DNA from: Octopus vulgaris
Lineage: Eukaryota
Assembly (NCBI GenBank): GCA_951406725.2
Contig: OX597817.1
Location: 59,706,001-59,770,000, forward strand
Length of the DNA stretch: 64,000 nucleotides
Reading direction: 5' to 3'
The number at the start of each line of letters is the position of its first letter. Positions within the stretch are counted from its first letter, which is position 1. The translations under genes and the position numbers were made by a program. Below are positions 31,562 to 61,604 of this stretch, in pieces. Below the pieces are notes generated by a model. That model was not told the DNA's origin. It saw only the letters and a program-made list of their open reading frames with translations, and made no database searches.

Positions 31562-31660
31562 TGCCTCCATTAAAAGTGTCTGCTGGCACCAACAAACGTC
31601 TGCAACTTCCCAAGAATAAAATTTTTATTACCGCATATGTTATGGATGAGCCATTAGAAG
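31562..31660 (+). CDS. KIAA0319L: PKD cassette copy 1, exon A (PKD1 N-part)
   Basis: LPPLKVSAGTNKRLQLPKNKIFITAYVMDEPLE; resembles human AAVR VSAGESVQITLPKNEVQLNAYVLQEP (recalled). Confidence 0.92.
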
Positions 31661-31701
31661 GTAAATCATGGATGACTATTTTAATCTAATATTGCTTTTG
31701 T

Positions 31702-31757
<56 letters not shown>

Positions 31758-31776
31758 CTTGCTTTTCTAATTGCAG

Positions 31777-31880
31777 GAAAGGAGTTCCATTACAAATGGT
31801 CAATGATAACATTCCCTAAAGGTGCTGAGAAACAAGGGTCAATGACTGGACCAGACAGTCAGACATTTATTCTCAAAGAT
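31777..31880 (+). CDS. KIAA0319L: PKD cassette copy 1, exon B
   Basis: GKEFHYKWSMITFPKGAEKQGSMTGPDSQTFILKD; AG/GT boundaries. Confidence 0.92.
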
Positions 31881-33961
31881 GTAAGTGGATTGCCAATTTA
31901 CTCTCCCTCTCTTTGTCTTTCTCTCCCTTTCTTTCTCTCTCTCTTTCTCTCCCTCTCTCATTGTATGAATTAATTGACTGACAAGGGACTAAGAATTATG
32001 TAACCAACATCATTAACATCGCAGTTTGTTTCTGCAGTGTACTCAGATTTTAAAAGCTCTGAAGAAGCTATCGGATGTTGCCCAAGCTCTCAGCTCTGAG
32101 AGCATTGCTTCTTTTAGCAGAAACATCTGTAAGCCAATGAAGCTGATTATGTATTTTCAGTTCTTGTCATTCAATCAATTTATATTATGCTCTCTACTTT
32201 ACTCTAAAGCATATCTTTATTGAGTCCTAACATCAGGTTGTCTCACTATGTCTATGCAAAATCATCACAAATATGCACACAAGAATTGGTAATTCTGAAA
32301 CATGGTATTGATTTTTTTTTTAATATTCCATGTTGAGGATCTTTCAGCCCCACCCGACTTATTATTCTCTACATACACGGAAGATATTAATGTGACTGAT
32401 TTTGCATCTCAAACATCTGAAATCAGTGTCTGCGAGAAAATCCTGGTCGGAGACAATATGCAAAAAGATTGGGTTCCATTTGCTCTCAATATTTCTCATT
32501 TCTTTTGGTTAGTGTTTTTTAGGAGCAGAGGCACAGCTGTGTGCTTAAGAAATTTACTCTTCAACCACATAGATTTTGGTTCAGTGCCACTGTGTGGCAC
32601 CTTGGGCAAGTGCCATCTTCTATAGCTCCAGGCTGACCAAAGCCTTGTGAGTGGATTTGGCAGACAGAAATGAAAATAAATCTGTCCTATATATCTTCCT
32701 CATCATCTTCTTCCATTTTAACATCCATTTTCTGTGCTGCTATGCATTGGATGGCTTGACAGGACCCAACAAGCCACAGGGCTGCACCATGTCCCTTTGT
32801 CTGCACTGGCATCATCTCTATAGCTGGATGACCTTCCTAATGCTAGCAGTTGGACTGGTGGGGGGAAGCTTGTTTTCATGCCACCAGCACTAGTGAGATT
32901 GCCGACTAACTGGGAAGACAGGAAAACACCCCGCCTAAACAGCGTGTGCCTGGGGGAGTTGGTTTTACACTAGGTGTTGGTGGTGGTTAAAGTTTGGAAG
33001 GAGGGACAAGTCCAGATGTGTTACTATGGTGAATATAAATATTTGCCCCACATTATATAAGAGTGGATGGGACTAGCTAGGAAGTAAGAAGAGATGGTTG
33101 TTATGGTGAGCCAGTGCAAACCCTCTAGGAGCCAGAAAAGATATGGATGAGGAGGAGAAAGAAGGGGGAGAGTGACAACAGATGGTTAGAGATAGGGGTT
33201 AGAAGTGAAGGCGGTGACAAACGAGTGGGAGTGCAGCTTGGTGGGAAGTAGCAGTATTGAGGGAAGGGGTAAGGGGAGAGATAATAAAGGCTGAAGGATA
33301 ACAGATCAGGAAGTAGGGGACAATGATCAAGGAGTGGAAGGGAGGGAGACATGATGATGGTATGTAAATGTGGCCATGGTTAGTGGACATGGTAGCTGAT
33401 GGAGGAGGGCATTGGGAATGAAAGCAGATATGAGATGGAGAGTCACTGGAGGGAGAGATAGGAGGGAATTGGTGAACATGGGAAAGGATGAGGATGGAAA
33501 TGCAGGCTGGAGGCAGTGACTGGTAACGCAAAGAGTTAGGGGATGTGATGGTATGTGTGCCAAGGGGGTGGGGGGTGGGGAAAGAGTGATGTGGGGAATG
33601 TTTGATGGAGCAGAATGAGCATAGGAACAGGGCCTAGCATGCACCCATAGACAATGCTTTTAGGACATGCGTGCGTGTGTGTGTGTTTGTATCTCCTTGT
33701 TGTGACTTTCTGTAATAACTGTAAATTCATTCATTTCCAATATTCTGTGGAATCATCTGTGGCCAGGGAGAAATGTTACTTTGCTTGGAAGCAAGGGAGG
33801 GTTGGCCACAGAAAGGGCATTTGGCCATAGAAAATCCGCCTCACTAGTTTCTTCTTCACTTTTTAACCTTGAAGAAAAGAAATATGTGCATTTTTTTGTC
33901 TTTTTTTTGTGTGTAGTGTATTATGATTGTTTAATTACTAACTTATTATTTTAATATTTAG

Positions 33962-34049
33962 CTTGTTGCTGGTCTTTACACCTTGAAACTTGAAGTCACT
34001 GGAAACAACCGAGCTGGTGAAGCCTATGTCAATGTAACTGTTATCCCAC
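33962..34049 (+). CDS. KIAA0319L: PKD cassette copy 1, exon C (PKD1 end)
   Basis: LVAGLYTLKLEVTGNNRAGEAYVNVTVIP. Confidence 0.92.
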
Positions 34050-34761
34050 GTAAGTAATGAAAATAACCACCTGCATTGTGTTGTGTTGCTCTCATTAGAC
34101 GGAATGGTCAGAAATGGTTAAGAAGCTTTCTTGACAATCGCAAGGTCCTACTTCTTGGCATTTTGAGCAAATGTCTTTTACTGTAGCTTCACATCAAGAC
34201 AAGCCTTCTGAGTGAAATTGGGTTGATTGAAACTGTAGGGAAGCCCATCAAACAAATCATATTTGTAATTCAATCCTTTAGCATTCAGGGGCATTTTGTC
34301 TGTTTTTACATTCTGAGTTCAAATCCCACCAATGTCGACTTTGTCTTTCATCCTTCCAGGGTTGATGGAATCAACTAGACTCTCCTCCACTAAAATTTCA
34401 GGCTTTATCCCTTATCACAGAAAAGACTTTAATTATTATCAAGGCTATTAATTGCTATATTAATTAGCAGGGATTTTATCTTGAGGTTTGGTGACAACAA
34501 TTCTCCTCAAATCTCAAGAATCTTTCTTAGGATTCTCAAAGAATATGGAATGGTACTTTTCTGCAGGTTGACATTGTGAGTCTCAGTTCCAATAGTTTTC
34601 AGTCTTTTTGGTAACATTTTCAGTGTTGTGCCAAGAGCATCCTTTACCACAGGAAGGAACTTTTGAAATTTTTGTCTTCCACAATTTCTTCTTCTCTTTG
34701 ATTAGTCCCAGATATTTCTCAATTTTCTCTAAATATTATCATTATTATTATTATTATTTAG

Positions 34762-34851
34762 CAAAGAGGATTAATAAACCCCCAGTCGCTATAATTAAAC
34801 CAACATCTCTCCAGATCAAGTTACCTACATCTGCTATCCTTGACGGCTCAG
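34762..34851 (+). CDS. KIAA0319L: PKD cassette copy 1, exon D (PKD2 start)
   Basis: PKRINKPPVAIIKPTSLQIKLPTSAILDGS. Confidence 0.92.
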
Positions 34852-35035
34852 GTGAGTAGACAGGCAGACACCACTGTCTTATGTAGATTTCTATGTATGT
34901 GTATCTGTGTATCTGTGTGTGTGTGTGTGCATGTATGTGTGTCTATGTGTAGGTTTTTTTTTACATTTTATTCAGCTATAATATGTATTGAATAAATACT
35001 AATGCTAAGTACTAATACTACTAATTCTGTGTGTC

Positions 35036-35070
<35 letters not shown>

Positions 35071-36651
35071 CTGACTGCTTGTATTTTCTCATATATTTGT
35101 GTGTGTGTATATATATATCTTTCATTTATTCATTTAAATGTACAGAGTTCACAGGAAATGGTACAGCATCATGGTGCTGTTAAACTGGGTGGTTTGTTAA
35201 ATGTCTCACCTGAAAATGTGGACAAAGAAAACATGAATAATGTCTTTGTGGATTTTCATGCTTCTTCCTCTATGTCTAAAAATTATTGAATAAAAGCCTT
35301 TTATATTGTTGTTCAGTTACATATGGCATAAACCCACCTGATGGCACTTGCTTGTAGCGAATCTCAACACCTCCTCCTCTTGAAGACGCTTAAATGATGT
35401 TAGTGTTCTGTTTAAATCTGTGCCCTGACACAGCTTCACCATCTTCTCTTTCTCATACTGAGGTAGCCATGTATCTCCTGCACAGCAAAAGACCTGTCTC
35501 AGTCCGGCTATCATACTCTAACCCCTCATCACCTGTCATCTCCCTTAGTATGACACCACCTTCAGTTGAGGGGTCTTGTCATGGTGTTAGGAAGGACATC
35601 ATCCAGCTGTGGAAATCCTGGCAAAATGAATGTTGGAGCTTGGTGCAGTCCTCTAACTCCCAAGCTCCTGTCAAACTGTCCAACCCATGCCAGTATGGAA
35701 AACGGACATTAAATGACAATGGTAGGAAATTAAAAAACTAAAAGTTGGTTCATATATTCAGTGAAAAACAAAAAATTAAACATTTAGCTAATGACTAATG
35801 TTACTTTCAATTGGAATTATGGAAGATAACTCAAGACATTTCAGGATTTATATGGGGTTCTTCAGCAGAAATGTTTTATTTACTGAATATACAGAATTTG
35901 TTGTTGTGGAGAGAAAGGTATATAATTGTCTGTCTCTGGAACTGATGAATCCTTGAATAATTCTTTTCCTGATCACATTTCAGTTTGTTTAAACTGAAAA
36001 ACCAATCTTCTCAATTTGACATCAACTCAACATAAACCACATCAATCAAAACTAGTCTGGGAAGCATCAAAGTTACTTCTCCTCCTCTCACTTACATTCC
36101 ATGCCACTACACTCCCATGCTTGCACACCTCCACACACCCCAAGAAACCACATGCACCCTATACCACCATACCCCTGCCGATCTCTATTCACAGAATCCA
36201 GTCTCGTCTGGATTTAACAGTCTCTATCTTAGTCGTCCACCGTTCATTCTTATGATGACATGTACACACCACCCTACCTCTTCCTTCCTTTTTAACCCTT
36301 ACAGCTACATTCCCACCTAGCCCCTAACCTTTCTTTCCAAGCACTTTTTCTCGTTCTTTCCTCATACATTCGTTTTTTTCCTGAAGAACTAATCTCTGAA
36401 ACATGGAGACAGTTTCCCTCATTAAGTGTTAAACATCATTGGTTATAAGGTTTCCCTTCCATGTTGTCTTCTTCAAGGCAGTGCCCCAGCATGGCCGCAG
36501 TCCAATAATTGAAACAAGTAAAAGGTAAAAGACCATTGTCTTTGCTCTGGGGATAGAATTTCATTTGCCCTGCAAAGGTTTGTCATGTGAATGCTTGTCC
36601 CCTGCTCCAATTGCTGTTACTAACGGCACTTTCTTGCTTCCATATTTGCAG

Positions 36652-36784
36652 ACAGCACAGATGACATGAAAGTCGTCAAGTATAAATGGGAAGAGGTTAG
36701 TGGTCCCATCAATGACCGACCCATCGAAAGTAATGCATCCATGTTGAAACTCAATCATCTGGAACCAGGGAAATATCAGTTTAA
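36652..36784 (+). CDS. KIAA0319L: PKD cassette copy 1, exon E
   Basis: DSTDDMKVVKYKWEEVSGPINDRPIESNASMLKLNHLEPGKYQF. Confidence 0.92.
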
Positions 36785-37504
36785 GTAAGTAAATTCCATC
36801 TCGTCTTCATTTTTTTCCATGTTAAATGGAAATAAGTCATTTTTCACTTTGATTTTCTCTTCATCTTTCATGTTTTGAATGCATTTAATACTTGTGTTTT
36901 GAGTTGTTATGTAAGATAACCATTACATAATAATATTACCCTCATCAGTCAACATTTTAAAATATAAAGATATATAAAAATCTGGCCTGTATTTAGTAGT
37001 TGTCTGGATAGTCTTAGAAACCCACCAAAGTACAAAGAAGGTGGAGGGAGATAGGTTGAGAAAGGTGTGTGTAAGAGGTAGGGGAAATATGAGTAAATAA
37101 ATATATTATTAAACAGGCAATAAAGCCTAATTGCAGAGATGAAATAAAAAGAACGCAGAAAAAGAAAAAAGAAAGAACAGTAACTGATAAACATTAGACA
37201 CCAAGTGATAGACAAAAAATATAGACAGGAGGGTGCCAAATATAACATCTAATTACTCATAAAATAACTGAAAAAAAAATGAAGGAGTTTCAGCCATTTC
37301 TAATGGATCATAGCATCTTTGACAATTCTTTTTGTGCCTTATAATTTAACACACTCGGCAGTAAAATTTCCACTTATTTTTATTTTCCTAAAATTTTTGT
37401 TGTGTCTTGCAACCTTTTCAAAATCCAAAAATGAAATCTCTGACAATGTTTGTAGTATCATTGACTTTCTATAGAACAGATGTAAACACACCCACACACA
37501 CATT

Positions 37505-37551
<47 letters not shown>

Positions 37552-38081
37552 CACTGCTGAGTGGTTGGTGTTAGGAAGGGCATTCAGCAGTAAAAATCCT
37601 GTCAAGACAGTCACGGAATTCTGGTGCAGGCTTCTGCGCCTGGCTGGCTCTTGTCAAACCATCCCACCCATGTTAGCATGGAAGGCGGATATTAAACAGT
37701 GATGATGATGAAATACATAAGCATATATACATGTATATTCTCACATATATGTACAAACACATACAACTGTGCATATACACACATACAAGCTAAGAAGAAT
37801 AGTAGTGATGGGGTCTCTGGAACAATTGCTTGATACAGTAGAAACTTTTGTATCATTCAAACATACTGGAAATGTTACCATTAACCATTCTGGCCTGAGG
37901 ATTGCCCTAAGCATGAAACTTTTGAGAAATTAGTTGTGAAGTGACTGGACCTAACGACATAGAATATTTACTGTCCTTTACTCTACCACATTTGAGGAAT
38001 GTGTGTTTTTAAGTATAAATATGTATTTTTGTATACATAGATACATACACACACGTTTATAAAATTCATTTTTATTTTCAG

Positions 38082-38146
38082 GTTAACCGTGACTGATTCT
38101 GATGGTGCCACAAATTCCACTTTAGCTAATGTTACCGCTATTAAAG
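38082..38146 (+). CDS. KIAA0319L: PKD cassette copy 1, exon F (PKD2 end)
   Basis: KLTVTDSDGATNSTLANVTAIK; resembles AAVR LTVVDSDGATNSTTANLTV (recalled); ends phase 1. Confidence 0.92.
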
Positions 38147-40635
38147 GTTTGTATATTTCCATTTCTTTTACAAATTATACACAAGGCTGTTGAGTTTCAT
38201 TTCCTGAATATTAAAATAATGCTTTACATGAGCCAACCAGTTTTTTTATAAGTTTGTATTTGTAAAACTAAACTGAAGTAAACCAGAACACAAAACATCT
38301 GGAGGCCCCCAACTCTTACCTGCATTCCAAGCAAGGTATTTTTGTTTCATTCCACTGGTATTCATATGTCAAAGCTTAAACTGTTTATTGGAGATTATAA
38401 ACAAAGAAAGGCGCAGGCATGGCTGCGTGGCAAGAAGCTTGCTTCCCAACCACATGGTCCCAGGTTCAATCCCACTGTATAGCACTTTGGGCAAGTATCT
38501 TCTATTATAGCCTTGGGCCAACCAAAACCTTGTGAGTGGATTTGGTAGATGGAAACTGAAAGAAGCCTGTCGTTTATGTGTATATATGTTTGTGTGTCTG
38601 TGTTTCACCCCATACCATCATTTGACAACCGATGTTGGTGTGTTTACATCCCCGTAACTTAGCAGTTTGGCAAAAGAGATTGATAGAATAAATACTAGGC
38701 TTATAAAGAATAAGTCCTGAGGTCGATTTGTTCGGCTAAAGGTGGTGCTCCAGCATGGCCACAGTCAATTGACTGAAATGAGTAAAAGAAAATAAAAGAA
38801 TAAAGATGCTGCTTTTTGCTCAGACTACATTGAGGACACGTGGAATGACATCTTCACACTCACTTAAACACACACACACACACACATAACAAGCTTTTTC
38901 TCAGTTTCATTTCTTAGTCCCACTCACAAGGCATTGTTTGGCCTAAAACTACGACAGAAAACTCTTGGCCAAGGTGCCACCACATAGCAGGACTGAAAAC
39001 CTCAACCAGGATCCTGTCAGAATGTCCAACTCATACCAGCATGGAAAGCAGGTGGGAAATGATGATAATACACACAACAGATACGTGGGATGAAGTAGTG
39101 AAGGCCAAAGACAAAGGACCAAGATATCTGGTGCCTTGCTGTACTCGGGAGACCTCTTCACCACAGCTGAATTGATATCCTAAGCCACATTGGTTAATTG
39201 CTCCCCTCCCAGCTGAAGGGGGTTTTGTCTTGCAAGTTATTTGGTGACCCTGGTGGTACTGGCACCACCTAAGAAGCACCTGTGCCGGTGCCATGTAAAA
39301 AGCACTCAATACACTGTGTAAAGCAAACCCAGTCATAGAAATTATGCCAAGACAGATGGTTGGAATGTGGTGCAGCTCTTCAGCCTTGCCAGCTCTGGTG
39401 AAACTGTCCAACCCATGCCAGCAAGGAAAGCAGACATTAAATAATGATGATGATGATCATTATCATTTAATGTTCATTTTCCATGCTAGCTTTGGTTGAA
39501 TGGTTTGATGATCCAACATGCAATAGGGCCGTGTGTCAAGTTCCAGTACCTGCTACACTCTTGGAGTGGTTGGCATTAGGAAGGGCATCCAGCTGTTGAA
39601 ACATTGCCAGATCGGATTGGAGCCTGGTGCGGCCTCCTGGCTTGCCAGTCTCCAGTCAAACCGTCCAACCCATGCCAGCATGGAAAGCAAACATTAAACG
39701 ATGATGATGATGATGACAAGGCAGTGGTATTTGTTGTTATAATTTTGATTCAGAGGAAGAAATGTGTGTGTGTGTGTGATGGTCTGTCCCACTGAGAATG
39801 ATATACAAGCTTCCAGTTTGATCAGCAAAATTGTCTACTCATCATGCTCAGGTGGATTGCAACTGTGCCTCCCCTTGACATATTTCTCTTTGATGTGAAT
39901 CTGAATAACAAAGTCTAGTGGATGGCAAGTAATGGATGCTGTACATGATACATCACCATTTAATGTCTGTGTTCCTTTCTGGTATGGACTGGACACTTTG
40001 ACCAGGATCTGACAGTTCCAAGCATGACATTGTCCTCTAGTTTCTGCTTTCGTTGGATGCCCTTCCTAATCTCACCAATCACTTTTCGGTGCTTTTTTTC
40101 ATGGTACCATTGAGGTCATCATGCAGCTCACATGACGAAAACCCAAGGCAGGACGGGCAGTTTAGTAAAGTATTATGGGATGGAAGTAGGGGCGACTGGG
40201 GTCTTGTAGAGGGGCTACACAGCTGTTCACAGGGATGAGAATGATACATTCCTAATTTATTAAAAGTTCCTCATCTTGGACTGATAGAAAACAAAGATTT
40301 GGTAAATCTTAGCAACTGTGAATGAGGAAGGGAGATAAATCCAGAAATGGTGAACTTTTTTTACATGTATTTGGATTAGTGAAGACTTTGCCTTTTCTCT
40401 TTTGACACTTATTTTCATCTAAAATAAGACAATCTGACTGACAGACAAATTTCCATTCACTAATATGTTATAGAACCACTGCACTGAGTCTTCTACCTGC
40501 GCATATGGCCTAATTTGACAGCTACACTGTTTCGATACTCAACATTCTTCAGCTAGATTTTTTTTCATTCAGTTGATGTCTACAGACATAATGTCTGTTT
40601 CTCAGCTTTTGACTTTTGCAATTCTTCTCTTCCAG

Positions 40636-40734
40636 TGCCTCCATTAAAAGTGTCTGCTGGCACCAACAAACGTCTGCAACTTCCCAAGAATGAAATTATT
40701 CTTACCGCATATGTTATGGATGAGCCATTAGAAG
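40636..40734 (+). CDS. KIAA0319L: PKD cassette copy 2, exon A (variant KNEIILTA)
   Basis: Same splice sites; 3 nonsynonymous differences. Confidence 0.9.
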
Positions 40735-42141
40735 GTAAATCAGATTTCAATTTTTCCTTGTTTGTATTTTTTCTTTTTAAATTAATGTTTTCACAGGTGC
40801 AGGCTGGCTGTGTGCTTGAGAAGTTCGCTTCCCTGTCATGTAGTTTTGGGTTCAGCCCCACTGCACAGCACCTTAGGCAGCTGTCTTCTACTATACCCCT
40901 GGGCCAACCAGTACATTGTGAGTGAAAGAAGCAGTGTGTTTATTGTAGTTAAATGTCACTATCATACAAGCAGCGTCCATTCATTTGCAATCTGCTGTGA
41001 AAACCTGTCCAGTTCTTTGGTTTTTCATGTTTGAAGGACTCGAGGGAAATGTTGCCTTGCTTGGAAGCATGGAGAGGATGGTAACAAGGAAAACATACAG
41101 CTGTATAAAATATACTTCAATAAATTTCACCTGACTTCTTGTGCAAGCACGGAAAAGAGGACATTCAAAGCAACCTTTTATTTGATTCCAACCATGCTGG
41201 GACACTGCCTTGAATGAAAATATTTTTCATTGTCTGCTAGGATTGGAATCCAGATCTACTGTAAATCCTGCAGCTGTGGTCACCATTTAGTCAAACGGCT
41301 ATTTTTTTCATGGATGATGTTTCTTGTATGGTTCCGGAATGTCAGCCACAGCGTTTTTCTTCATGTTGTTCAATTTTCGAAGTTTGGATCCTGTGTATTC
41401 TGTTCTCTTCTCTAAAGACCCAGCTGGGCTGGTGGCTTGTGTCGGTTGGCCTCATGGTTACAGTGGAGATAGGGACTGACTGGGACACTGCACCAGGGGT
41501 TGCTCAGGACAACCCAAGCAGATACCCAAGAAATGGTGAATGTAGCAATGCACTGCAATGGCACATGCTTGATGCTTTCATCAAAATCCAATTTTATTTT
41601 CATGGTTTTAGTCAAACGACAACAGGATGTGCTTTCCTTGCATACATCATGGCTATTAATGATGTATACGAGTGTTTTATATCTTGCTTAGCTGAATATA
41701 CTTGCTGTATACAATAGGATATATACACAAGTGTATATAGAAACTCAGTCAAGCCTGAACTGGCTTTACAGCTTGCTCCACCAAATCGTAAACAAATTTG
41801 CAATATCTTTCCATGCATAAAATTTTGAACGAATGAAAAAAGAGAAGAATGAAATGCCATGGAAGAAGTTTGCATATTTCTTTGTTGTTGACATTCGTTT
41901 ATGTTTTCGGTAAAGAATGGGCTGCATTGTAGGTGCGCGCCTGTAAAGGTGTGGCTTGGACTATGTCACTGTGAAGTTACTAAAATAGTTTAGTTATATA
42001 TTATGTAACTGTGAACTTAGCCACCAGACTGAATAAGAATCTGTTAAAATATCTTGGATGAATGCTACAGTTAGTTTGCCTTTTCCTATTTACATTAAGT
42101 ATGATATATGGATGACTATTTTAATCTAATATTGCTTTTGT

Positions 42142-42195
<54 letters not shown>

Positions 42196-42214
42196 CTTGC
42201 TTTTCTAATTGCAG

Positions 42215-42317
42215 GAAAGGAGTTCCATTACAAATGGTCAATGATAACATTCCTAAAGGTGCTGAGAAACAAGGGTCAATGACTGGACCAGACAGTCAGA
42301 CATTTATTCTCAAAGAT
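42215..42317 (+). CDS. KIAA0319L: PKD cassette copy 2, exon B, 1-bp deletion frameshift (103 nt)
   Basis: ATTCCTAAA versus ATTCCCTAAA in the other copies; TGA at 42280-42282. Confidence 0.8.
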
Positions 42318-44401: not shown

Positions 44402-44489
44402 CTTGTTGCTGGTCTTTACACCTTGAAACTTGAAGTCACTGGAAACAACCGAGCTGGTGAAGCCTATGTCAATGTAACTGTTATCCCAC
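44402..44489 (+). CDS. KIAA0319L: PKD cassette copy 2, exon C
   Basis: Same as copy 1. Confidence 0.88.
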
Positions 44490-45201
44490 GTAAGTAATGA
44501 AAATAACCACCTGCATTGTGTTGTGTTGCTCTCATTAGACGGAATGGTCAGAAATGGTTAAGAAGCTTTCTTGACAATCGCAAGGTCCTACTTCTTGGCA
44601 TTTTGAGCAAATGTCTTTTACTGTAGCTTCACATCAAGACAAGCCTTCTGAGTGAAATTGGGTTGATTGAAACTGTAGGGAAGCCCATCAAACAAATCAT
44701 ATTTGTAATTCAATCCTTTAGCATTCAGGGGCATTTTGTCTGTTTTTACATTCTGAGTTCAAATCCCACCAATGTCGACTTTGTCTTTCATCCTTCCAGG
44801 GTTGATGGAATCAACTAGACTCTCCTCCACTAAAATTTCAGGCTTTATCCCTTATCACAGAAAAGACTTTAATTATTATCAAGGCTATTAATTGCTATAT
44901 TAATTAGCAGGGATTTTATCTTGAGGTTTGGTGACAACAATTCTCCTCAAATCTCAAGAATCTTTCTTAGGATTCTCAAAGAATATGGAATGGTACTTTT
45001 CTGCAGGTTGACATTGTGAGTCTCAGTTCCAATAGTTTTCAGTCTTTTTGGTAACATTTTCAGTGTTGTGCCAAGAGCATTCTTTACCACAGGAAGGAAC
45101 TTTTGAAATTTTTGTCTTCCACAATTTCTTCTTCTCTTTGATTAGTCCCAGATATTTCTCAATTTTCTCTAAATATTATCATTATTATTATTATTATTTA
45201 G

Positions 45202-45291
45202 CAAAGAGGATTAATAAACCCCCAGTCGCTATAATTAAACCAACATCTCTCCAGATCAAGTTACCTACATCTGCTATCCTTGACGGCTCAG
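45202..45291 (+). CDS. KIAA0319L: PKD cassette copy 2, exon D
   Basis: Same as copy 1. Confidence 0.88.
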
Positions 45292-45476
45292 GTGAGTAGA
45301 CAGGCAGACACCACTGTCTTATGTAGATTTCTATGTATGTGTATCTGTGTATCTGTGTGTGTGTGTGTGCATGTATGTGTGTCTATGTGTAGGTTTTTTT
45401 TTTACATTTTATTCAGCTATAATATGTATTGAATAAATACTAATGCTAAGTACTAATACTACTAATTCTGTGTGTC

Positions 45477-47945: not shown

Positions 47946-47989
<44 letters not shown>

Positions 47990-48519: not shown

Positions 48520-48584
48520 GTTAACCGTGACTGATTCTGATGGTGCCACAAATTCCACTTTAGCTAATGTTACCGCTATTAAAG
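48520..48584 (+). CDS. KIAA0319L: PKD cassette copy 2, exon F
   Basis: Same as copy 1. Confidence 0.88.
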
Positions 48585-51073
48585 GTTTGTATATTTCCAT
48601 TTCTTTTACAAATTATACACAAGGCTGTTGAGTTTCATTTCCTGAATATTAAAATAATGCTTTACATGAGCCAACCAGTTTTTTTATAAGTTTGTATTTG
48701 TAAAACTAAACTGAAGTAAACCAGAACACAAAACATCTGGAGGCCCCCAACTCTTACCTGCATTCCAAGCAAGGTATTTTTGTTTCATTCCACTGGTATT
48801 CATATGTCAAAGCTTAAACTGTTTATTGGAGATTATAAACAAAGAAAGGCGCAGGCATGGCTGTGTGGCAAGAAGCTTGCTTCCCAACCACATGGTCCCA
48901 GGTTCAATCCCACTGTATAGCACTTTGGGCAAGTATCTTCTATTATAGCCTTGGGCCAACCAAAACCTTGTGAGTGGATTTGGTAGATGGAAACTGAAAG
49001 AAGCCTGTCGTTTATGTGTATATATGTTTGTGTGTCTGTGTTTCACCCCATACCATCATTTGACAACCGATGTTGGTGTGTTTACATCCCCGTAACTTAG
49101 CAGTTTGGCAAAAGAGATTGATAGAATAAATACTAGGCTTATAAAGAATAAGTCCTGAGGTCGATTTGTTCGGCTAAAGGTGGTGCTCCAGCATGGCCAC
49201 AGTCAATTGACTGAAATGAGTAAAAGAAAATAAAAGAATAAAGATGCTGCTTTTTGCTCAGACTACATTGAGGACACGTGGAATGACATCTTCACACTCA
49301 CTTAAACACACACACACACACACATAACAAGCTTTTTCTCAGTTTCATTTCTTAGTCCCACTCACAAGGCATTGTTTGGCCTAAAACTACGACAGAAAAC
49401 TCTTGGCCAAGGTGCCACCACATAGCAGGACTGAAAACCTCAACCAGGATCCTGTCAGAATGTCCAACTCATACCAGCATGGAAAGCAGGTGGGAAATGA
49501 TGATAATACACACAACAGATACGTGGGATGAAGTAGTGAAGGCCAAAGACAAAGGACCAAGATATCTGGTGCCTTGCTGTACTCGGGGAGACCTCTTCAC
49601 CACAGCTGAATTGATATCCTAAGCCACATTGGTTAATTGCTCCCCTCCCAGCTGAAGGGGGTTTTGTCTTGCAAGTTATTTGGTGACCCTGGTGGTACTG
49701 GCACCACCTAAGAAGCACCTGTGCCGGTGCCATGTAAAAAGCACTCAATACACTGTGTAAAGCAAACCCAGTCATAGAAATTATGCCAAGACAGATGGTT
49801 GGAATGTGGTGCAGCTCTTCAGCCTTGCCAGCTCTGGTGAAACTGTCCAACCCATGCCAGCAAGGAAAGCAGACATTAAATAATGATGATGATGATCATT
49901 ATCATTTAATGTTCATTTTCCATGCTAGCTTTGGTTGAATGGTTTGATGATCCAACATGCAATAGGGCCGTGTGTCAAGTTCCAGTACCTGCTACACTCT
50001 TGGAGTGGTTGGCATTAGGAAGGGCATCCAGCTGTTGAAACATTGCCAGATCGGATTGGAGCCTGGTGCGGCCTCCTGGCTTGCCAGTCTCCAGTCAAAC
50101 CGTCCAACCCATGCCAGCATGGAAAGCAAACATTAAACGATGATGATGATGATGACAAGGCAGTGGTATTTGTTGTTATATTTTTGATTCAGAGGAAGAA
50201 ATGTGTGTGTGTGTGTGATGGTCTGTCCCACTGAGAATGATATACAAGCTTCCAGTTTGATCAGCAAAATTGTCTACTCATCATGCTCAGGTGGATTGCA
50301 ACTGTGCCTCCCCTTGACATATTTCTCTTTGATGTGAATCTGAATAACAAAGTCTAGTGGATGGCAAGTAATGGATGCTGTACATGATACATCGCCATTT
50401 AATGTCTGTGTTCCTTTCTGGTATGGACTGGACACTTTGACCAGGATCTGACAGTTCCAAGCATGACATTGTCCTCTAGTTTCTGCTTTCGTTGGATGCC
50501 CTTCCTAATCTCACCAATCACTTTTCGGTGCTTTTTTTCATGGTACCATTGAGGTCATCATGCAGCTCACATGACGAAAACCCAAGGCAGGACGGGCAGT
50601 TTAGTAAAGTATTATGGGATGGAAGTAGGGGCGACTGGGGTCTTGTAGAGGGGCTACACAGCTGTTCACAGGGATGAGAATGATACATTCCTAATTTATT
50701 AAAAGTTCCTCATCTTGGACTGATAGAAAACAAAGATTTGGTAAATCTTAGCAACTGTGAATGAGGAAGGGAGATAAATCCAGAAATGGTGAACTTTTTT
50801 TACATGTATTTGGATTAGTGAAGACTTTGCCTTTTCTCTTTTGACACTTATTTTCATCTAAAATAAGACAATCTGACTGACAGACAAATTTCCATTCACT
50901 AATATGTTATAGAACCACTGCACTGAGTCTTCTACCTGCGCATATGGCCTAATTTGACAGCTACACTGTTTCGATACTCAACATTCTTCAGCTAGATTTT
51001 TTTCATTCAGTTGATGTCTACAGACATAATGTCTGTTTCTCAGCTTTTGACTTTTGCAATTCTTCTCTTCCAG

Positions 51074-51172
51074 TGCCTCCATTAAAAGTGTCTGCTGGCA
51101 CCAACAAACGTCTGCAACTTCCCAAGAATAAAATTTTTATTACCGCATATGTTATGGATGAGCCATTAGAAG
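51074..51172 (+). CDS. KIAA0319L: PKD cassette copy 3, exon A (KNKIFITA)
   Basis: Same as copy 1. Confidence 0.9.
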
Positions 51173-52579
51173 GTAAATCAGATTTCAATTTTTCCTTGTT
51201 TGTATTTTTTCTTTTTAAATTAATGTTTTCACAGGTGCAGGCTGGCTGTGTGCTTGAGAAGTTCGCTTCCCTGTCATGTAGTTTTGGGTTCAGCCCCACT
51301 GCACAGCACCTTAGGCAGCTGTCTTCTACTATACCCCTGGGCCAACCAGTACATTGTGAGTGAAAGAAGCAGTGTGTTTATTGTAGTTAAATGTCACTAT
51401 CATACAAGCAGCGTCCATTCATTTGCAATCTGCTGTGAAAACCTGTCCAGTTCTTTGGTTTTTCATGTTTGAAGGACTCGAGGGAAATGTTGCCTTGCTT
51501 GGAAGCATGGAGAGGATGGTAACAAGGAAAACATACAGCTGTATAAAATATACTTCAATAAATTTCACCTGACTTCTTGTGCAAGCACGGAAAAGAGGAC
51601 ATTCAAAGCAACCTTTTATTTGATTCCAACCATGCTGGGACACTGCCTTGAATGAAAATATTTTTCATTGTCTGCTAGGATTGGAATCCAGATCTACTGT
51701 AAATCCTGCAGCTGTGGTCACCATTTAGTCAAACGGCTATTTTTTTCATGGATGATGTTTCTTGTATGGTTCCGGAATGTCAGCCACAGCGTTTTTCTTC
51801 ATGTTGTTCAATTTTCGAAGTTTGGATCCTGTGTATTCTGTTCTCTTCTCTAAAGACCCAGCTGGGCTGGTGGCTTGTGTCGGTTGGCCTCATGGTTACA
51901 GTGGAGATAGGGACTGACTGGGACACTGCACCAGGGGTTGCTCAGGACAACCCAAGCAGATACCCAAGAAATGGTGAATGTAGCAATGCACTGCAATGGC
52001 ACATGCTTGATGCTTTCATCAAAATCCAATTTTATTTTCATGGTTTTAGTCAAACGACAACAGGATGTGCTTTCCTTGCATACATCATGGCTATTAATGA
52101 TGTATACGAGTGTTTTATATCTTGCTTAGCTGAATATACTTGCTGTATACAATAGGATATATACACAAGTGTATATAGAAACTCAGTCAAGCCTGAACTG
52201 GCTTTACAGCTTGCTCCACCAAATCGTAAACAAATTTGCAATATCTTTCCATGCATAAAATTTTGAACGAATGAAAAAAGAGAAGAATGAAATGCCATGG
52301 AAGAAGTTTGCATATTTCTTTGTTGTTGACATTCGTTTATGTTTTCGGTAAAGAATGGGCTGCATTGTAGGTGCGCGCCTGTAAAGGTGTGGCTTGGACT
52401 ATGTCACTGTGAAGTTACTAAAATAGTTTAGTTATATATTATGTAACTGTGAACTTAGCCACCAGACTGAATAAGAATCTGTTAAAATATCTTGGATGAA
52501 TGCTACAGTTAGTTTGCCTTTTCCTATTTACATTAAGTATGATATATGGATGACTATTTTAATCTAATATTGCTTTTGT

Positions 52580-52627
<48 letters not shown>

Positions 52628-52646
52628 CTTGCTTTTCTAATTGCAG

Positions 52647-52750
52647 GAAAGGAGTTCCATTACAAATGGTCAATGATAACATTCCCTAAAGGTGCTGAGA
52701 AACAAGGGTCAATGACTGGACCAGACAGTCAGACATTTATTCTCAAAGAT
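52647..52750 (+). CDS. KIAA0319L: PKD cassette copy 3, exon B
   Basis: Intact, 104 nt. Confidence 0.9.
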
Positions 52751-54832
52751 GTAAGTGGATTGCCAATTTACTCTCCCTCTCTTTGTCTTTCTCTCCCTTT
52801 CTTTCTCTCTCTCTTTCTCTCCCTCTCTCATTGTATGAATTAATTGACTGACAAGGGACTAAGAATTATGTAACCAACATCATTAACATCGCAGTTTGTT
52901 TCTGCAGTGTACTCAGATTTTAAAAGCTCTGAAGAAGCTATCGGATGTTGCCCAAGCTCTCAGCTCTGAGAGCATTGCTTCTTTTAGCAGAAACATCTGT
53001 AAGCCAATGAAGCTGATTATGTATTTTCAGTTCTTGTCATTCAATCAATTTATATTATGCTCTCTACTTTACTCTAAAGCATATCTTTATTGAGTCCTAA
53101 CATCAGGTTGTCTCACTATGTCTATGCAAAATCATCACAAATATGCACACAAGAATTGGTAATTCTGAAACATGGTATTGATTTTTTTTTAATATTCCAT
53201 GTTGAGGATCTTTCAGCCCCACCCGACTTATTATTCTCTACATACACGGAAGATATTAATGTGACTGATTTTGCATCTCAAACATCTGAAATCAGTGTCT
53301 GCGAGAAAATCCTGGTCGGAGACAATATGCAAAAAGATTGGGTTCCATTTGCTCTCAATATTTCTCATTTCTTTTGGTTAGTGTTTTTTAGGAGCAGAGG
53401 CACGGCTGTGTGCTTAAGAAATTTACTCTTCAACCACATAGATTTTGGTTCAGTGCCACTGTGTGGCACCTTGGGCAAGTGCCATCTTCTATAGCTCCAG
53501 GCTGACCAAAGCCTTGTGAGTGGATTTGGCAGACAGAAATGAAAATAAATCTGTCCTATATATCTTCCTCATCATCTTCTTCCATTTTAACATCCATTTT
53601 CTGTGCTGCTATGCATTGGATGGCTTGACAGGACCCAACAAGCCACAGGGCTGCACCATGTCCCTTTGTCTGCACTGGCATCATCTCTATAGCTGGATGA
53701 CCTTCCTAATGCTAGCAGTTGGACTGGTGGGGGGAAGCTTGTTTTCATGCCACCAGCACTAGTGAGATTGCCGACTAACTGGGAAGACAGGAAAACACCC
53801 CGCCTAAACAGCGTGTGCCTGGGGGAGTTGGTTTTACACTAGGTGTTGGTGGTGGTTAAAGTTTGGAAGGAGGGACAAGTCCAGATGTGTTACTATGGTG
53901 AATATAAATATTTGCCCCACATTATATAAGAGTGGATGGGACTAGCTAGGAAGTAAGAAGAGATGGTTGTTATGGTGAGCCAGTGCAAACCCTCTAGGAG
54001 CCAGAAAAGATATGGATGAGGAGGAGAAAGAAGGGGGAGAGTGACAACAGATGGTTAGAGATAGGGGTTAGAAGTGAAGGCGGTGACAAACGAGTGGGAG
54101 TGCAGCTTGGTGGGAAGTAGCAGTATTGAGGGAAGGGGTAAGGGGAGAGATAAAAAAGGCTGAAGGATAACAGATCAGGAAGTAGGGGACAATGATCAAG
54201 GAGTGGAAGGGAGGGAGACATGATGGTGGTATGTAAGTGTGGCCATGGTTAGTGGACATGGTAGCTGATGGAGGAGGGCATTGGGAATGAAAGCAGATAT
54301 GAGATGGAGAGTCACTGGAGGGAGAGATAGGAGGGAATTGGTGAACATGGGAAAGGATGAGGATGGAAATGCAGGCTGGAGGCAGTGACTGGTAACGCAA
54401 AGAGTTAGGGGATGTGATGGTATGTGTGCCAAGGGGGGGAGGATGGGGAAAGAGTGATGTGGGGAATATTTGATGGAGCAGAATGAGCATAGGAACAGGG
54501 CCTAGCATGCACCCATAGACAATGCTTTTAGGACATGCGTGCGTGTGTGTGTGTTTGTATCTCCTTGTTGTGACTTTCTGTAATAACTGTAAATTCATTC
54601 ATTTCCAATATTCTGTGGAATCATCTGTGGCCAGGGAGAAATGTTACTTTGCTTGGAAGCAAGGGAGGGTTGGCCACAGAAAGGGCATTTGGCCATAGAA
54701 AATCCGCCTCACTAGTTTCTTCTTCTTCACTTTTTAACCTTGAAGAAAAGAAATATGTGCATTTTTTTGTCTTTTTTTTGTGTGTAGTGTATTATGATTG
54801 TTTAATTACTAACTTATTATTTTAATATTTAG

Positions 54833-54920
54833 CTTGTTGCTGGTCTTTACACCTTGAAACTTGAAGTCACTGGAAACAACCGAGCTGGTGAAGCCTATGT
54901 CAATGTAACTGTTATCCCAC
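54833..54920 (+). CDS. KIAA0319L: PKD cassette copy 3, exon C
   Basis: Same as copy 1. Confidence 0.9.
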
Positions 54921-55632
54921 GTAAGTAATGAAAATAACCACCTGCATTGTGTTGTGTTGCTCTCATTAGACGGAATGGTCAGAAATGGTTAAGAAGCTTT
55001 CTTGACAATCGCAAGGTCCTACTTCTTGGCATTTTGAGCAAATGTCTTTTACTGTAGCTTCACATCAAGACAAGCCTTCTGAGTGAAATTGGGTTGATTG
55101 AAACTGTAGGGAAGCCCATCAAACAAATCATATTTGTAATTCAATCCTTTAGCATTCAGGGGCATTTTGTCTGTTTTTACATTCTGAGTTCAAATCCCAC
55201 CAATGTCGACTTTGTCTTTCATCCTTCCAGGGTTGATGGAATCAACTAGACTCTCCTCCACTAAAATTTCAGGCTTTATCCCTTATCACAGAAAAGACTT
55301 TAATTATTATCAAGGCTATTAATTGCTATATTAATTAGCAGGGATTTTATCTTGAGGTTTGGTGACAACAATTCTCCTCAAATCTCAAGAATCTTTCTTA
55401 GGATTCTCAAAGAATATGGAATGGTACTTTTCTGCAGGTTGACATTGTGAGTCTCAGTTCCAATAGTTTTCAGTCTTTTTGGTAACATTTTCAGTGTTGT
55501 GCCAAGAGCATTCTTTACCACAGGAAGGAACTTTTGAAATTTTTGTCTTCCACAATTTCTTCTTCTCTTTGATTAGTCCCAGATATTTCTCAATTTTCTC
55601 TAAATATTATCATTATTATTATTATTATTTAG

Positions 55633-55722
55633 CAAAGAGGATTAATAAACCCCCAGTCGCTATAATTAAACCAACATCTCTCCAGATCAAGTTACCTACA
55701 TCTGCTATCCTTGACGGCTCAG
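55633..55722 (+). CDS. KIAA0319L: PKD cassette copy 3, exon D
   Basis: Same as copy 1. Confidence 0.9.
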
Positions 55723-55908
55723 GTGAGTAGACAGGCAGACACCACTGTCTTATGTAGATTTCTATGTATGTGTATCTGTGTATCTGTGTGTGTGTGTGTG
55801 CATGTATGTGTGTCTATGTGTAGGTTTTTTTTTTTACATTTTATTCAGCTATAATATGTATTGAATAAATACTAATGCTAAGTACTAATACTACTAATTC
55901 TGTGTGTC

Positions 55909-55941
<33 letters not shown>

Positions 55942-57522
55942 CTGACTGCTTGTATTTTCTCATATATTTGTGTGTGTGTATATATATATCTTTCATTTAT
56001 TCATTTAAATGTACAGAGTTCACAGGAAATGGTACAGCATCATGGTGCTGTTAAACTGGGTGGTTTGTTAAATGTCTCACCTGAAAATGTGGACAAAGAA
56101 AACATGAATAATGTCTTTGTGGATTTTCATGCTTCTTCCTCTATGTCTAAAAATTATTGAATAAAAGCCTTTTATATTGTTGTTCAGTCACATATGGCAT
56201 AAACCCACCTGATGGCACTTGCTTGTAGCGAATCTCAACACCTCCTCCTCTTGAAGACGCTTAAATGATGTTAGTGTTCTGTTTAAATCTGTGCCCTGAC
56301 ACAGCTTCACCATCTTCTCTTTCTCATACTGAGGTAGCCATGTATCTCCTGCACAGCAAAAGACCTGTCTCAGTCCGGCTATCATACTCTAACCCCTCAT
56401 CACCTGTCATCTCCCTTAGTATGACACCACCTTCAGTTGAGGGGTCTTGTCATGGTGTTAGGAAGGACATCATCCAGCTGTGGAAATCCTGGCAAAATGA
56501 ATGTTGGAGCTTGGTGCAGTCCTCTAACTCCCAAGCTCCTGTCAAACTGTCCAACCCATGCCAGTATGGAAAACGGACATTAAATGACAATGGTAGGAAA
56601 TTAAAAAACTAAAAGTTGGTTCATATATTCAGTGAAAAACAAAAAATTAAACATTTAGCTAATGACTAATGTTACTTTCAATTGGAATTATGGAAGATAA
56701 CTCAAGACATTTCAGGATTTATATGGGGTTCTTCAGCAGAAATGTTTTATTTACTGAATATACAGAATTTGTTGTTGTGGAGAGAAAGGTATATAATTGT
56801 CTGTCTCTGGAACTGATGAATCCTTGAATAATTCTTTTCCTGATCACATTTCAGTTTGTTTAAACTGAAAAACCAATCTTCTCAATTTGACATCAACTCA
56901 ACATAAACCACATCAATCAAAACTAGTCTGGGAAGCATCAAAGTTACTTCTCCTCCTCTCACTTACATTCCATGCCACTACACTCCCATGCTTGCACACC
57001 TCCACACACCCCAAGAAACCACATGCACCCTATACCACCATACCCCTGCCGATCTCTATTCACAGAATCCAGTCTCGTCTGGATTTAACAGTCTCTATCT
57101 TAGTCGTCCACCGTTCATTCTTATGATGACATGTACACACCACCCTACCTCTTCCTTCCTTTTTAACCCTTACAGCTACATTCCCACCTAGCCCCTAACC
57201 TTTCTTTCCAAGCACTTTTTCTCGTTCTTTCCTCATACATTCGTTTTTTTCCTGAAGAACTAATCTCTGAAACATGGAGACAGTTTCCCTCATTAAGTGT
57301 TAAACATCATTGGTTATAAGGTTTCCCTTCCATGTTGTCTTCTTCAAGGCAGTGCCCCAGCATGGCTGCAGTCCAATAATTGAAACAAGTAAAAGGTAAA
57401 AGACCATTGTCTTTGCTCTGGGGATAGAATTTCATTTGCCCTGCAAAGGTTTGTCATGTGAATGCTTGTCCCCTGCTCCAATTGCTGTTACTAACGGCAC
57501 TTTCTTGCTTCCATATTTGCAG

Positions 57523-57655
57523 ACAGCACAGATGACATGAAAGTCGTCAAGTATAAATGGGAAGAGGTTAGTGGTCCCATCAATGACCGACCCATCGAAA
57601 GTAATGCATCCATGTTGAAACTCAATCATCTGGAACCAGGGAAATATCAGTTTAA
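57523..57655 (+). CDS. KIAA0319L: PKD cassette copy 3, exon E
   Basis: Same as copy 1. Confidence 0.9.
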
Positions 57656-58374
57656 GTAAGTAAATTCCATCTCGTCTTCATTTTTTTCCATGTTAAATGG
57701 AAATAAGTCATTTTTCACTTTGATTTTCTCTTCATCTTTCATGTTTTGAATGCATTTAATACTTGTGTTTTGAGTTGTTATGTAAGATAACCATTACATA
57801 ATAATATTACCCTCATCAGTCAACATTTTAAAATATAAAGATATATAAAAATCTGGCCTGTATTTAGTAGTTGTCTGGATAGTCTTAGAAACCCACCAAA
57901 GTACAAAGAAGGTGGGGGAGATAGGTTGAGAAAGGTGTGTGTAAGAGGTAGGGGAAATATGAGTAAATAAATATATTATTAAACAGGCAATAAAGCCTAA
58001 TTGCAGAGATGAAATAAAAAGAACGCAGAAAAAGAAAAAAGAAAGAACAGTAACTGATAAACATTAGACACCAAGTGATAGACAAAAAATATAGACAGGA
58101 GGGTGCCAAATATAACATCTAATTACTCATAAAATAACTGAAAAAAAAATGAAGGAGTTTCAGCCATTTCTAATGGATCATAGCATCTTTGACAATTCTT
58201 TTTGTGCCTTATAATTTAACACACTCGGCAGTAAAATTTCCACTTATTTTTATTTTCCTAAAATTTTTGTTGTGTCTTGCAACCTTTTCAAAATCCAAAA
58301 ATGAAATCTCTGACAATGTTTGTAGTATCATTGACTTTCTATAGAACAGATGTAAACACACCCACACACACATT

Positions 58375-58419
<45 letters not shown>

Positions 58420-58949
58420 CACTGCTGAGTGGTTGGTGTTAGGAAGGGCATTCAGCAGTAAAAATCCTGTCAAGACAGTCACGGAATTCTGGTGCAGGCT
58501 TCTGCACCTGGCTGGCTCTTGTCAAACCATCCCACCCATGTTAGCATGGAAGGCGGATATTAAACAGTGATGATGATGAAATACATAAGCATATATACAT
58601 GTATATTCTCACATATATGTACAAACACATACAACTGTGCATATACACACATACAAGCTAAGAAGAATAGTAGTGATGGGGTCTCTGGAACAATTGCTTG
58701 ATACAGTAGAAACTTTTGTATCATTCAAACATACTGGAAATGTTACCATTAACCATTCTGGCCTGAGGATTGCCCTAAGCATGAAACTTTTGAGAAATTA
58801 GTTGTGAAGTGACTGGACCTAACGACATAGAATATTTACTGTCCTTTACTCTACCACATTTGAGGAATGTGTGTTTTTAAGTATAAATATGTATTTTTGT
58901 ATACATAGATACATACACACACGTTTATAAAATTCATTTTTATTTTCAG

Positions 58950-59014
58950 GTTAACCGTGACTGATTCTGATGGTGCCACAAATTCCACTTTAGCTAATGT
59001 TACCGCTATTAAAG
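58950..59014 (+). CDS. KIAA0319L: PKD cassette copy 3, exon F
   Basis: Same as copy 1. Confidence 0.9.
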
Positions 59015-61505
59015 GTTTGTATATTTCCATTTCTTTTACAAATTATACACAAGGCTGTTGAGTTTCATTTCCTGAATATTAAAATAATGCTTTACATGAG
59101 CCAACCAGTTTTTTTATAAGTTTGTATTTGTAAAACTAAACTGAAGTAAACCAGAACACAAAACATCTGGAGGCCCCCAACTCTTACCTGCATTCCAAGC
59201 AAGGTATTTTTGTTTCATTCCACTGGTATTCATATGTCAAAGCTTAAACTGTTTATTGGAGATTATAAACAAAGAAAGGCGCAGGCATGGCTGTGTGGCA
59301 AGAAGCTTGCTTCCCAACCACATGGTCCCAGGTTCAATCCCACTGTATAGCACTTTGGGCAAGTATCTTCTATTATAGCCTTGGGCCAACCAAAACCTTG
59401 TGAGTGGATTTGGTAGATGGAAACTGAAAGAAGCCTGTCGTTTATGTGTATATATGTTTGTGTGTCTGTGTTTCACCCCATACCATCATTTGACAACCGA
59501 TGTTGGTGTGTTTACATCCCCGTAACTTAGCAGTTTGGCAAAAGAGATTGATAGAATAAATACTAGGCTTATAAAGAATAAGTCCTGAGGTCGATTTGTT
59601 CGGCTAAAGGTGGTGCTCCAGCATGGCCACAGTCAATTGACTGAAATGAGTAAAAGAAAATAAAAGAATAAAGATGCTGCTTTTTGCTCAGACTACATTG
59701 AGGACACGTGGAATGACATCTTCACACTCACTTAAACACACACACACACACACATAACAAGCTTTTTCTCAGTTTTCATTTCTTAGTCCTACTCACAAGG
59801 CATTGTTTGGCCTAAAACTACGACAGAAAACTCTTGGCCAAGGTGCCACCACATAGCAGGACTGAAAACCTCAACCAGGATCCTGTCAGAATGTCCAACT
59901 CATACCAGCATGGAAAGCAGGTGGGAAATGATGATAATACACACAACAGATACGTGGGATGAAGTAGTGAAGGCCAAAGACAAAGGACCAAGATATCTGG
60001 TGCCTTGCTGTACTCGGGGAGACCTCTTCACCACAGCTGAATTGATATCCTAAGCCACATTGGTTAATTGCTCCCCTCCCAGCTGAAGGGGGTTTTGTCT
60101 TGCAAGTTATTTGGTGACCCTGGTGGTACTGGCACCACCTAAGAAGCACCTGTGCCGGTGCCATGTAAAAAGCACTCAATACACTGTGTAAAGCAAACCC
60201 AGTCATAGAAATTATGCCAAGACAGATGGTTGGAATGTGGTGCAGCTCTTCAGCCTTGCCAGCTCTGGTGAAACTGTCCAACCCATGCCAGCAAGGAAAG
60301 CAGACATTAAATAATGATGATGATGATCATTATCATTTAATGTTCATTTTCCATGCTAGCTTTGGTTGAATGGTTTGATGATCCAACATGCAATAGGGCC
60401 GTGTGTCAAGTTCCAGTACCTGCTACACTCTTGGAGTGGTTGGCATTAGGAAGGGCATCCAGCTGTTGAAACATTGCCAGATCGGATTGGAGCCTGGTGC
60501 GGCCTCCTGGCTTGCCAGTCTCCAGTCAAACCGTCCAACCCATGCCAGCATGGAAAGCAAACATTAAACGATGATGATGATGATGACAAGGCAGTGGTAT
60601 TTGTTGTTATATTTTTGATTCAGAGGAAGAAATGTGTGTGTGTGTGTGATGGTCTGTCCCACTGAGAATGATATACAAGCTTCCAGTTTGATCAGCAAAA
60701 TTGTCTACTCATCATGCTCAGGTGGATTGCAACTGTGCCTCCCCTTGACATATTTCTCTTTGATGTGAATCTGAATAACAAAGTCTAGTGGATGGCAAGT
60801 AATGGATGCTGTACATGATACATCACCATTTAATGTCTGTGTTCCTTTCTGGTATGGACTGGACACTTTGACCAGGATCTGACAGTTCCAAGCATGACAT
60901 TGTCCTCTAGTTTCTGCTTTCGTTGGATGCCCTTCCTAATCTCACCAATCACTTTTCGGTGCTTTTTTTCATGGTACCATTGAGGTCATCATGCAGCTCA
61001 CATGACGAAAACCCAAGGCAGGACGGGCAGTTTAGTAAAGTATTATGGGATGGAAGTAGGGGCGACTGGGGTCTTGTAGAGGGGCTACACAGCTGTTCAC
61101 AGGGATGAGAATGATACATTCCTAATTTATTAAAAGTTCCTCATCTTGGACTGATAGAAAACAAAGATTTGGTAAATCTTAGCAACTGTGAATGAGGAAG
61201 GGAGATAAATCCAGAAATGGTGAACTTTTTTTACATGTATTTGGATTAGTGAAGACTTTGCCTTTTCTCTTTTGACACTTATTTTCATCTAAAATAAGAC
61301 AATCTGACTGACAGACAAATTTCCATTCACTAATATGTTATAGAACCACTGCACTGAGTCTTCTACCTGCGCATATGGCCTAATTTGACAGCTACACTGT
61401 TTCGATACTCAACATTCTTCAGCTAGATTTTTTTTCATTCAGTTGATGTCTACAGACATAATGTCTGTTTCTCAGCTTTTGACTTTTGCAATTCTTCTCT
61501 TCCAG

Positions 61506-61604
61506 TGCCTCCATTAAAAGTGTCTGCTGGCACCAACAAACGTCTGCAACTTCCCAAGAATAAAATTTTTATTGCCGCATATGTTATGGATGAGCCATTA
61601 GAAG
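61506..61604 (+). CDS. KIAA0319L: PKD cassette copy 4, exon A (variant KNKIFIAA)
   Basis: ACC to GCC at 61574. Confidence 0.9.

Follow-up and report, generated by a model that had tools for sequence, protein, structure and literature searches.

Outside the jawed vertebrates, KIAA0319L/AAVR is described as a single ancestral gene (PMC13431526, in excerpt). The present work concerns a 64,000-nucleotide stretch of Octopus vulgaris DNA (contig OX597817.1, positions 59,706,001 to 59,770,000, forward strand; hereafter the window), which holds a second gene of this family: a young, transcribed O. vulgaris duplicate of KIAA0319L/AAVR that apparently adjoins an intact parent gene. The duplicate resembles the rest of the family (the parent, CAI9721076-7, and the O. 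sinensis orthologue XP_029634781) in encoding PKD1 and PKD2, and it matches the parent at 351 of 356 residues, but it differs from the family in the tandem repetition of PKD1-PKD2 and in the lack of the EGF-like exon. It is a fresh variant of a known family; NCBI models exist (CAI9721072-5), and our literature searches of open-access text, supplements excluded, found no published description of it.

Tandem exon arrays under concerted evolution consist of a phase-compatible block multiplied by unequal crossing-over, with mosaic copies. The octopus array has the same block multiplication and apparent mosaicism, but it is very young (about 0.2% between copies) and lies in a paralogue beside an intact parent. 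Every other protein compared has one PKD1, yet O. vulgaris has a second, expressed gene in which PKD1-PKD2 is multiplied. In such a recent domain-repeat expansion, mutation mechanism, conversion and selection are potentially separable.

For the substitutions, the closest described cases are the clusters at quasi-palindromes, in which template switching produces grouped changes that perfect an inverted repeat, alter neighbouring amino acids and mimic positive selection (PMC5453318 and PMC8604942, both in excerpt). The octopus cluster is probably of this kind; unlike those cases, it would require two successive switches with registers 3 nt apart, and its templates of 7-8 nt are below the 14-nt filter used in PMC5453318. 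Lineage-specific substitution in PKD1 is also known within the family, as at the AAV5 (adeno-associated virus 5) interface of the cat, R353E (PMC13431526, in excerpt), whereas the octopus changes affect strand B and the residues preceding strand E and leave the AAV5-binding C-D and E-F loops untouched. With moderate confidence, we propose that one templated mutation cluster was carried or homogenised through the tandem array of the duplicate, and that the parent-type sequence in the second copy of the array is a parent-derived patch.

A duplicate of KIAA0319L/AAVR with a tandem PKD1-PKD2 array

Exon E of the window matches an O. vulgaris protein of 1166 residues named KIAA0319-like, and the exons of the tandem unit encode PKD1 and PKD2 (Pfam PF22352, K319L-like PKD domains orthologous to human PKD1-2; E = 1.3e-138). 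The duplicate was aligned to the solved structures 6NZ0, 7KPN and 6JCS; human AAVR 6NZ0 was the best solved-structure match of the parent protein (E = 2.8e-88). In the NCBI annotation, the four isoforms of the duplicate carry the three exon-A types of the window, and the parent gene has a single PKD1-PKD2. Because this second O. vulgaris gene and the O. sinensis orthologue both read KNEIILT in the exon-A tract (DNEVILT in Argonauta), the window gene is the duplicate, with exon A of its copy 2 in the parental state. The suggestion of the first-pass annotation that copy 2 may be ancestral thus holds for exon A, which equals that of the parent and the orthologue.

Where the parent and O. sinensis have KNEIILT, DSK and MWRHP, the window has KIFI, DSQ and MWRHS. 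The spliced copy 1 differs from the parent at five of 356 residues (P5S, E183K, I185F, L186I and K225Q), and the annotated PKD3-5 of the duplicate at none of 285. Over these 641 compared residues, four of the five differences fall in the 98-residue PKD1 and none in PKD2-5 or the mucin stalk; the parent and O. sinensis differ at one of the same positions. An annotated isoform of the duplicate has 10 PF22352 stretches against 5 each in the parent and in one further protein, so that the five-PKD series of the family is not kept. Among the 128 family proteins compared, many of which are isoforms and therefore not independent, only the four isoforms of the duplicate had more than one PKD1-like stretch. 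No short PKD1-bearing protein of other octopods passed 1e-15 (0 of 34 candidates; weak evidence), and tblastn gave no match within the window to the alternative EGF-like exon of the parent (residues 45-113 of the CAI9721076-7 pair). The N-terminal MANEC domain had no Pfam match in the duplicate, the parent or the O. sinensis protein; its absence is general to these octopus proteins.

The window encodes a signal-like stretch, a mucin stalk and (PKD1-PKD2)n. Its tandem units are 99.5-99.7% identical, and each comprises six exons, A-F, of 99, 104, 88, 90, 133 and 65 nt. Since these sum to 579 nt and their phases match, F can splice in frame to the following A, and a transcript could read through as (PKD1-PKD2)n. 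Aligned in full, the four copies show substitutions in 22 columns, of which 4 fall among 579 exonic and 18 among 9861 intronic positions. In exon A, copies 1 and 3 encode KNKIFITA; copy 2 has KNEIILTA, with G at 40692, A at 40698 and C at 40701, and copy 4 has KNKIFIAA, with G at 61574. As had been noted earlier, the four substitutions are all first-position and nonsynonymous, and they lie within 13 bp. Four of 22 sites within 13 bp gives P = 5.5e-5, assuming uniform placement. The density of exonic changes exceeds that of introns if they are counted as four events (p = 0.031), but not as two (p = 0.31), and four of four nonsynonymous is unremarkable under neutrality (P = 0.29-0.36). The first-pass annotation had found no substitutions in exons B-F, and there are none; however, exon B of copy 2 has lost 1 bp, and exons B-F are therefore not identical. 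The intronic differences, described there as scattered, occupy 18 columns, yet some of them cluster. These intronic clusters, in purine-rich sequence, lie at 44006/44015/44040 and 43794/43805 (copy 2 coordinates); three of the changes occur in copy 1 alone and two in copy 3 alone.

Read evidence came from the contigs of 4 of 24 listed runs, in which rare alleles are dropped and depth is a rough guide. Two are DNA runs of organism A, the same species, from different samples and studies (X1, of which about 80% was read and which may stem from the assembled animal itself, and X2); X17 is classed as RNA by guess and by its spliced contig, not by its record; X5 belongs to organism B, a sister species. 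The long exon-A contig of X1 and X2 differs from copy 2 at four places, namely 39742 and the three KIFI sites. The depth of EIIL was 54.2 of 424.9 in X1 and 18.1 of 140.8 in X2, about 13% in each. The expected share is 40% if two of the five assembled copies carry it and 14% if it is one locus among about seven; at only about 13% of the depth, the parent gene alone could supply it. The X17 contig is exactly 579 letters long: exon A and the full exon B carry KIFIT and Q225 with no frameshift, and the other 376 letters correspond to exons C-F, spliced in frame through all six exons. The contig begins and ends exactly at the unit ends, as F-to-A splicing would produce; other branches or a circular RNA could have the same effect.

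The independent runs thus support KIFI and provide no listed contig with either the frameshift of copy 2 or the T187A change of copy 4. All three runs covering 42251 have, in their contigs, the base that copy 2 lacks there. None of the listed contigs of the four runs, in which rare alleles are lost, carries T187A; this change is probably a singleton, either private to copy 4 or an error. Copies 1, 3 and 4 appear to share a single derived haplotype (E183K, I185F, L186I); several distinct derived variants among the copies were not found, only this haplotype and the parent state, in contigs that can hide rare alleles. RNA editing was rejected as the source of the differences, which sit in DNA contigs; the derived change in codon 183 is G>A.

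The X5 contigs carry EIIL and K225, with parent-type A at the K225Q site; of 2736 intronic bases, 6 (0.22%) are not those of copy 2. Their depth is uneven on long unique-looking contigs over 37900-42750 (18 at exon B, 103 at exon A and 132 at exon F), and a second contig starts inside exon A. This may reflect a separate amplification in the sister species, and hints that the amplification is older or happened twice.

Probable template switching and the mosaic copy 2

The earlier suggestion of a mutational hotspot is partly upheld: the ancestral tract is quasi-palindromic, and template switching can account for the changes. In the derived tract the inverted repeat has become perfect, the three ancestral mismatches having been abolished by one change each. 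Random three-site clusters complete such a repeat in 0.2-0.7% of cases (8000 trials per null). Of the six possible orders of a two-step path, only one finds a template each time: G>A would be copied from a reverse complement of 8 nt, which perfects the ancestral hairpin, and then the two right-hand changes from one of 7 nt. The chance rate of such templates in these exons is 0.8% among 1734 single changes and 1.1% among 5040 pairs. These observations suggest template switching as the cause of the cluster. The first-pass annotation had allowed for a neutral multinucleotide event, and this is largely what the tract points to, with two templated steps instead of one.

The following sequence of events would account for the data. 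After duplication of the KIAA0319L/AAVR gene in the O. vulgaris lineage, a local mutation cluster would have arisen at a quasi-palindrome in the strand-B codons of the PKD1 of the duplicate, first as G>A, for which the right arm of the ancestral hairpin served as template, and then as A>T and C>A, templated by the new left arm. The six-exon array would have formed by unequal crossing-over, and the KIFI haplotype with K225Q would have been carried into it, or homogenised across it, probably under near-neutrality.

Copy 2 has one private intronic change, compared with eight in copy 1 and six in copy 3, which is too few for the earliest-branching copy (p = 0.006-0.04). At 39742, moreover, copies 1 and 2 share an allele that is missing from the majority contigs of X1, X2 and X5, whereas KIFI would group copy 1 with copies 3 and 4. 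Because of this conflict and the few private changes, copy 2 is a mosaic; despite its parent-type EIIL it keeps Q225. Its EIIL is probably a short parent-derived tract, produced either by gene conversion or by a chimeric consensus. A chimeric consensus is plausible because nanopore reads, polished with short reads, underlie the public O. vulgaris reference (PMC10700109, in excerpt). A tight, all-nonsynonymous cluster between tandem copies can thus arise from one templated cluster and a parent-derived patch, which calls for caution in reading such clusters.

Several points weigh against a templated, nearly neutral origin. A single four-point template switch was rejected, with no solution in either direction; two steps are required, with short templates rich in A/T, and the test was devised post hoc. 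At -1.6 kcal/mol, the derived hairpin is also less stable than the ancestral one, at -2.7 kcal/mol. All differences between duplicate and parent are first-position (the codon of P5S being inferred), which neutrality does not predict, and their concentration in PKD1 has P = 0.002 as sites and 0.013-0.06 as events. Finally, contigs lose rare alleles and depth gives no copy number, so that hidden minor variants are possible.

Less likely alternatives: selection, decay and assembly artefact

The alternative that survives best, although we consider it unlikely, is that directional selection remodelled the PKD1 face of the duplicate and the unit was then amplified into a multivalent (PKD1-PKD2)n with a new partner; template switching may have supplied the mutations. 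The PKD1 bias of the differences, with only one difference between the parent and O. sinensis, agrees with this, as does the dominance of the KIFI form in the RNA contig. In exons A, B and F (268 bp), comparison with organism B gave four nonsynonymous and no synonymous changes, with P = 0.003 as four events, 0.02 as three and 0.12 as two (Poisson test set against the 0.22% intron divergence of organism B). This comparison, synonymous changes included, is confined to exons A, B and F, and only three events remain once the cluster is templated.

The AlphaFold model of the parent, used for secondary structure only, has strands at residues 184-187 and 226-230, near the changed residues. By the fold, these would be the neighbouring strands B and E of one sheet; residues 183, 185 and 187 would face outward, judging from the fold and the conservation pattern. 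All 49 aligned proteins have L at residue 186, as do 117 of the 119 in a wider set, and none has I; as a change in an invariant core residue, L186I is an unlikely adaptive target. This protein is not known to be used by any octopus virus. Mapping on human AAVR PKD1, proposed with the initial observation, placed the changed sites at 325, 327, 328, 329 and 365 (counted along the 6NZ0 alignment), all outside the listed AAV5 contacts at 349-357, 371-376, 397 and 399 (PMC7698955, in excerpt), which also argues against selection. A still stronger version appears doubtful: that a second AAVR-type gene, strongly transcribed, recently came to encode a multivalent chain of about 4-6 PKD1-PKD2 units in which an outer PKD1 face (E183K/I185F/K225Q) was fixed array-wide by positive selection. 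In that case, and if the transmembrane exons are truly lost, the product would be secreted and act as an avidity binder or a decoy, made of the same two domains to which viruses attach in vertebrates.

It is improbable that the duplicate is decaying under relaxed constraint as a transcribed pseudogene or with a functionless product. The altered invariant L186, the frameshift of copy 2, the absent EGF-like exon and annotated models without C6 and the transmembrane part would suit decay; but the frameshift occurs in 0 of the 3 covering runs, the RNA contig is in frame over six exons, PKD2-5 are unaltered, and the missing tail may be an annotation fault, as the parent annotation also ends before the transmembrane exon. 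The duplicate is, furthermore, too young to show decay either way.

The first-pass annotation favoured diversifying selection among the tandem copies, giving a repertoire of variant PKD1 domains. Three exon-A types are indeed assembled, and exon density exceeds that of introns at the four-event count; however, one type is the parent sequence, and another occurs once and in none of the listed contigs; the three linked changes belong to a single lineage, KIFIT is the form of every majority contig in X1, X2 and X17, and EIIL depth is far under the share expected from two of five copies. This explanation is therefore very improbable. Almost no weight remains for a wholly artefactual array with artefactual variants: near-identical copies, the nanopore-based reference and a 39546 junction not visible in the contig tables might have suggested it, but KIFI and Q225 occur in independent DNA and RNA contigs, which refutes it for KIFI, the shared intron contigs are about seven times deeper than the EIIL contig, and the RNA contig is an exact 579-nt unit.

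Features and annotation of the window

The coordinates are collected in the table. The 5' boundary of copy 1 falls within a repeat resembling a short interspersed nuclear element (SINE). Copy 1 has lost 1366 bp of the A-B intron (equivalent to 40743-42108), with 7 nt of original sequence left after the donor GT; the difference is a deletion in copy 1, because the block is identical in copies 2, 3 and 4 and present in the organism-B contig.

Features of the KIAA0319L-like duplicate in the window (positions of the window, 5' to 3')
Feature	Position	Strand	Remarks
Exon 1	20851..20983	+	Start codon, hydrophobic signal-like stretch; P5S vs parent
Exon 2	23075..23370	+	Ser/Thr-rich mucin-like region
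Exon 3	29411..29471	+	End of mucin-like stalk
Tandem unit copy 1	30472..39545	+	9074 bp; without 1366-bp intron block, junction 31668
Copy 1 exons	A 31562-31660, B 31777-31880, C 33962-34049, D 34762-34851, E 36652-36784, F 38082-38146	+	
Derived KIFI tract	31615..31629	+	Perfect inverted repeat, 7-bp arms, 1-nt centre; E183K 31618, I185F 31624, L186I 31627
Tandem unit copy 2	39546..49984	+	
Copy 2 exons	A 40636-40734, B 42215-42317, C 44402-44489, D 45202-45291, E 47091-47223, F 48520-48584	+	
Parent-type EIIL tract, copy 2	40692..40701	+	Imperfect hairpin; putative conversion patch or assembly chimera
1-bp deletion, copy 2 exon B	42251	+	Frameshift, 103 vs 104 nt
K225Q site	42297	+	First codon position; common to all four exon-B copies, copy 2 included
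Tandem unit copy 3	49985..60415	+	
Copy 3 exons	A 51074-51172, B 52647-52750, C 54833-54920, D 55633-55722, E 57523-57655, F 58950-59014	+	
Tandem unit copy 4	60416..64000	+	Ends at window edge
Copy 4 exons	A 61506-61604, B 63071-63174	+	T187A at 61574

The hydrophobic stretch of exon 1, a putative signal only, spans residues 30-43 of the duplicate and is identical to that of the parent. In three copies, the NCBI models omit the first 14 codons of exon B (31777-31820; strand C and the C-D loop); they are probably wrong at the exon B start, since the RNA contig carries the full exon. Beyond the window, the annotated models of the duplicate add the last PKD1, PKD3-5 and one or two zf-met zinc-finger exons, in which they end; this ending may come from chimeric annotation, or two genes may truly have fused at the breakpoint of the duplication. 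A candidate 91-nt exon at 32038-32128 was considered and rejected: its inclusion breaks the frame, and the RNA contig leaves no room for it.

An intronic SINE-like repeat at 26761-27141 has one frame nearly identical to a peptide in an O. bimaculoides UniRef model, in which the repeat may have been exonised wrongly or truly. Upstream of the gene, positions 3780-7668 (+) hold an apparently intact retrotransposon without long terminal repeats, with a stop-free frame of 1107 amino acids containing endonuclease and reverse transcriptase domains; a short frame resembling open reading frame 1 (ORF1) precedes it, and long (TA)n arrays lie on its flanks.

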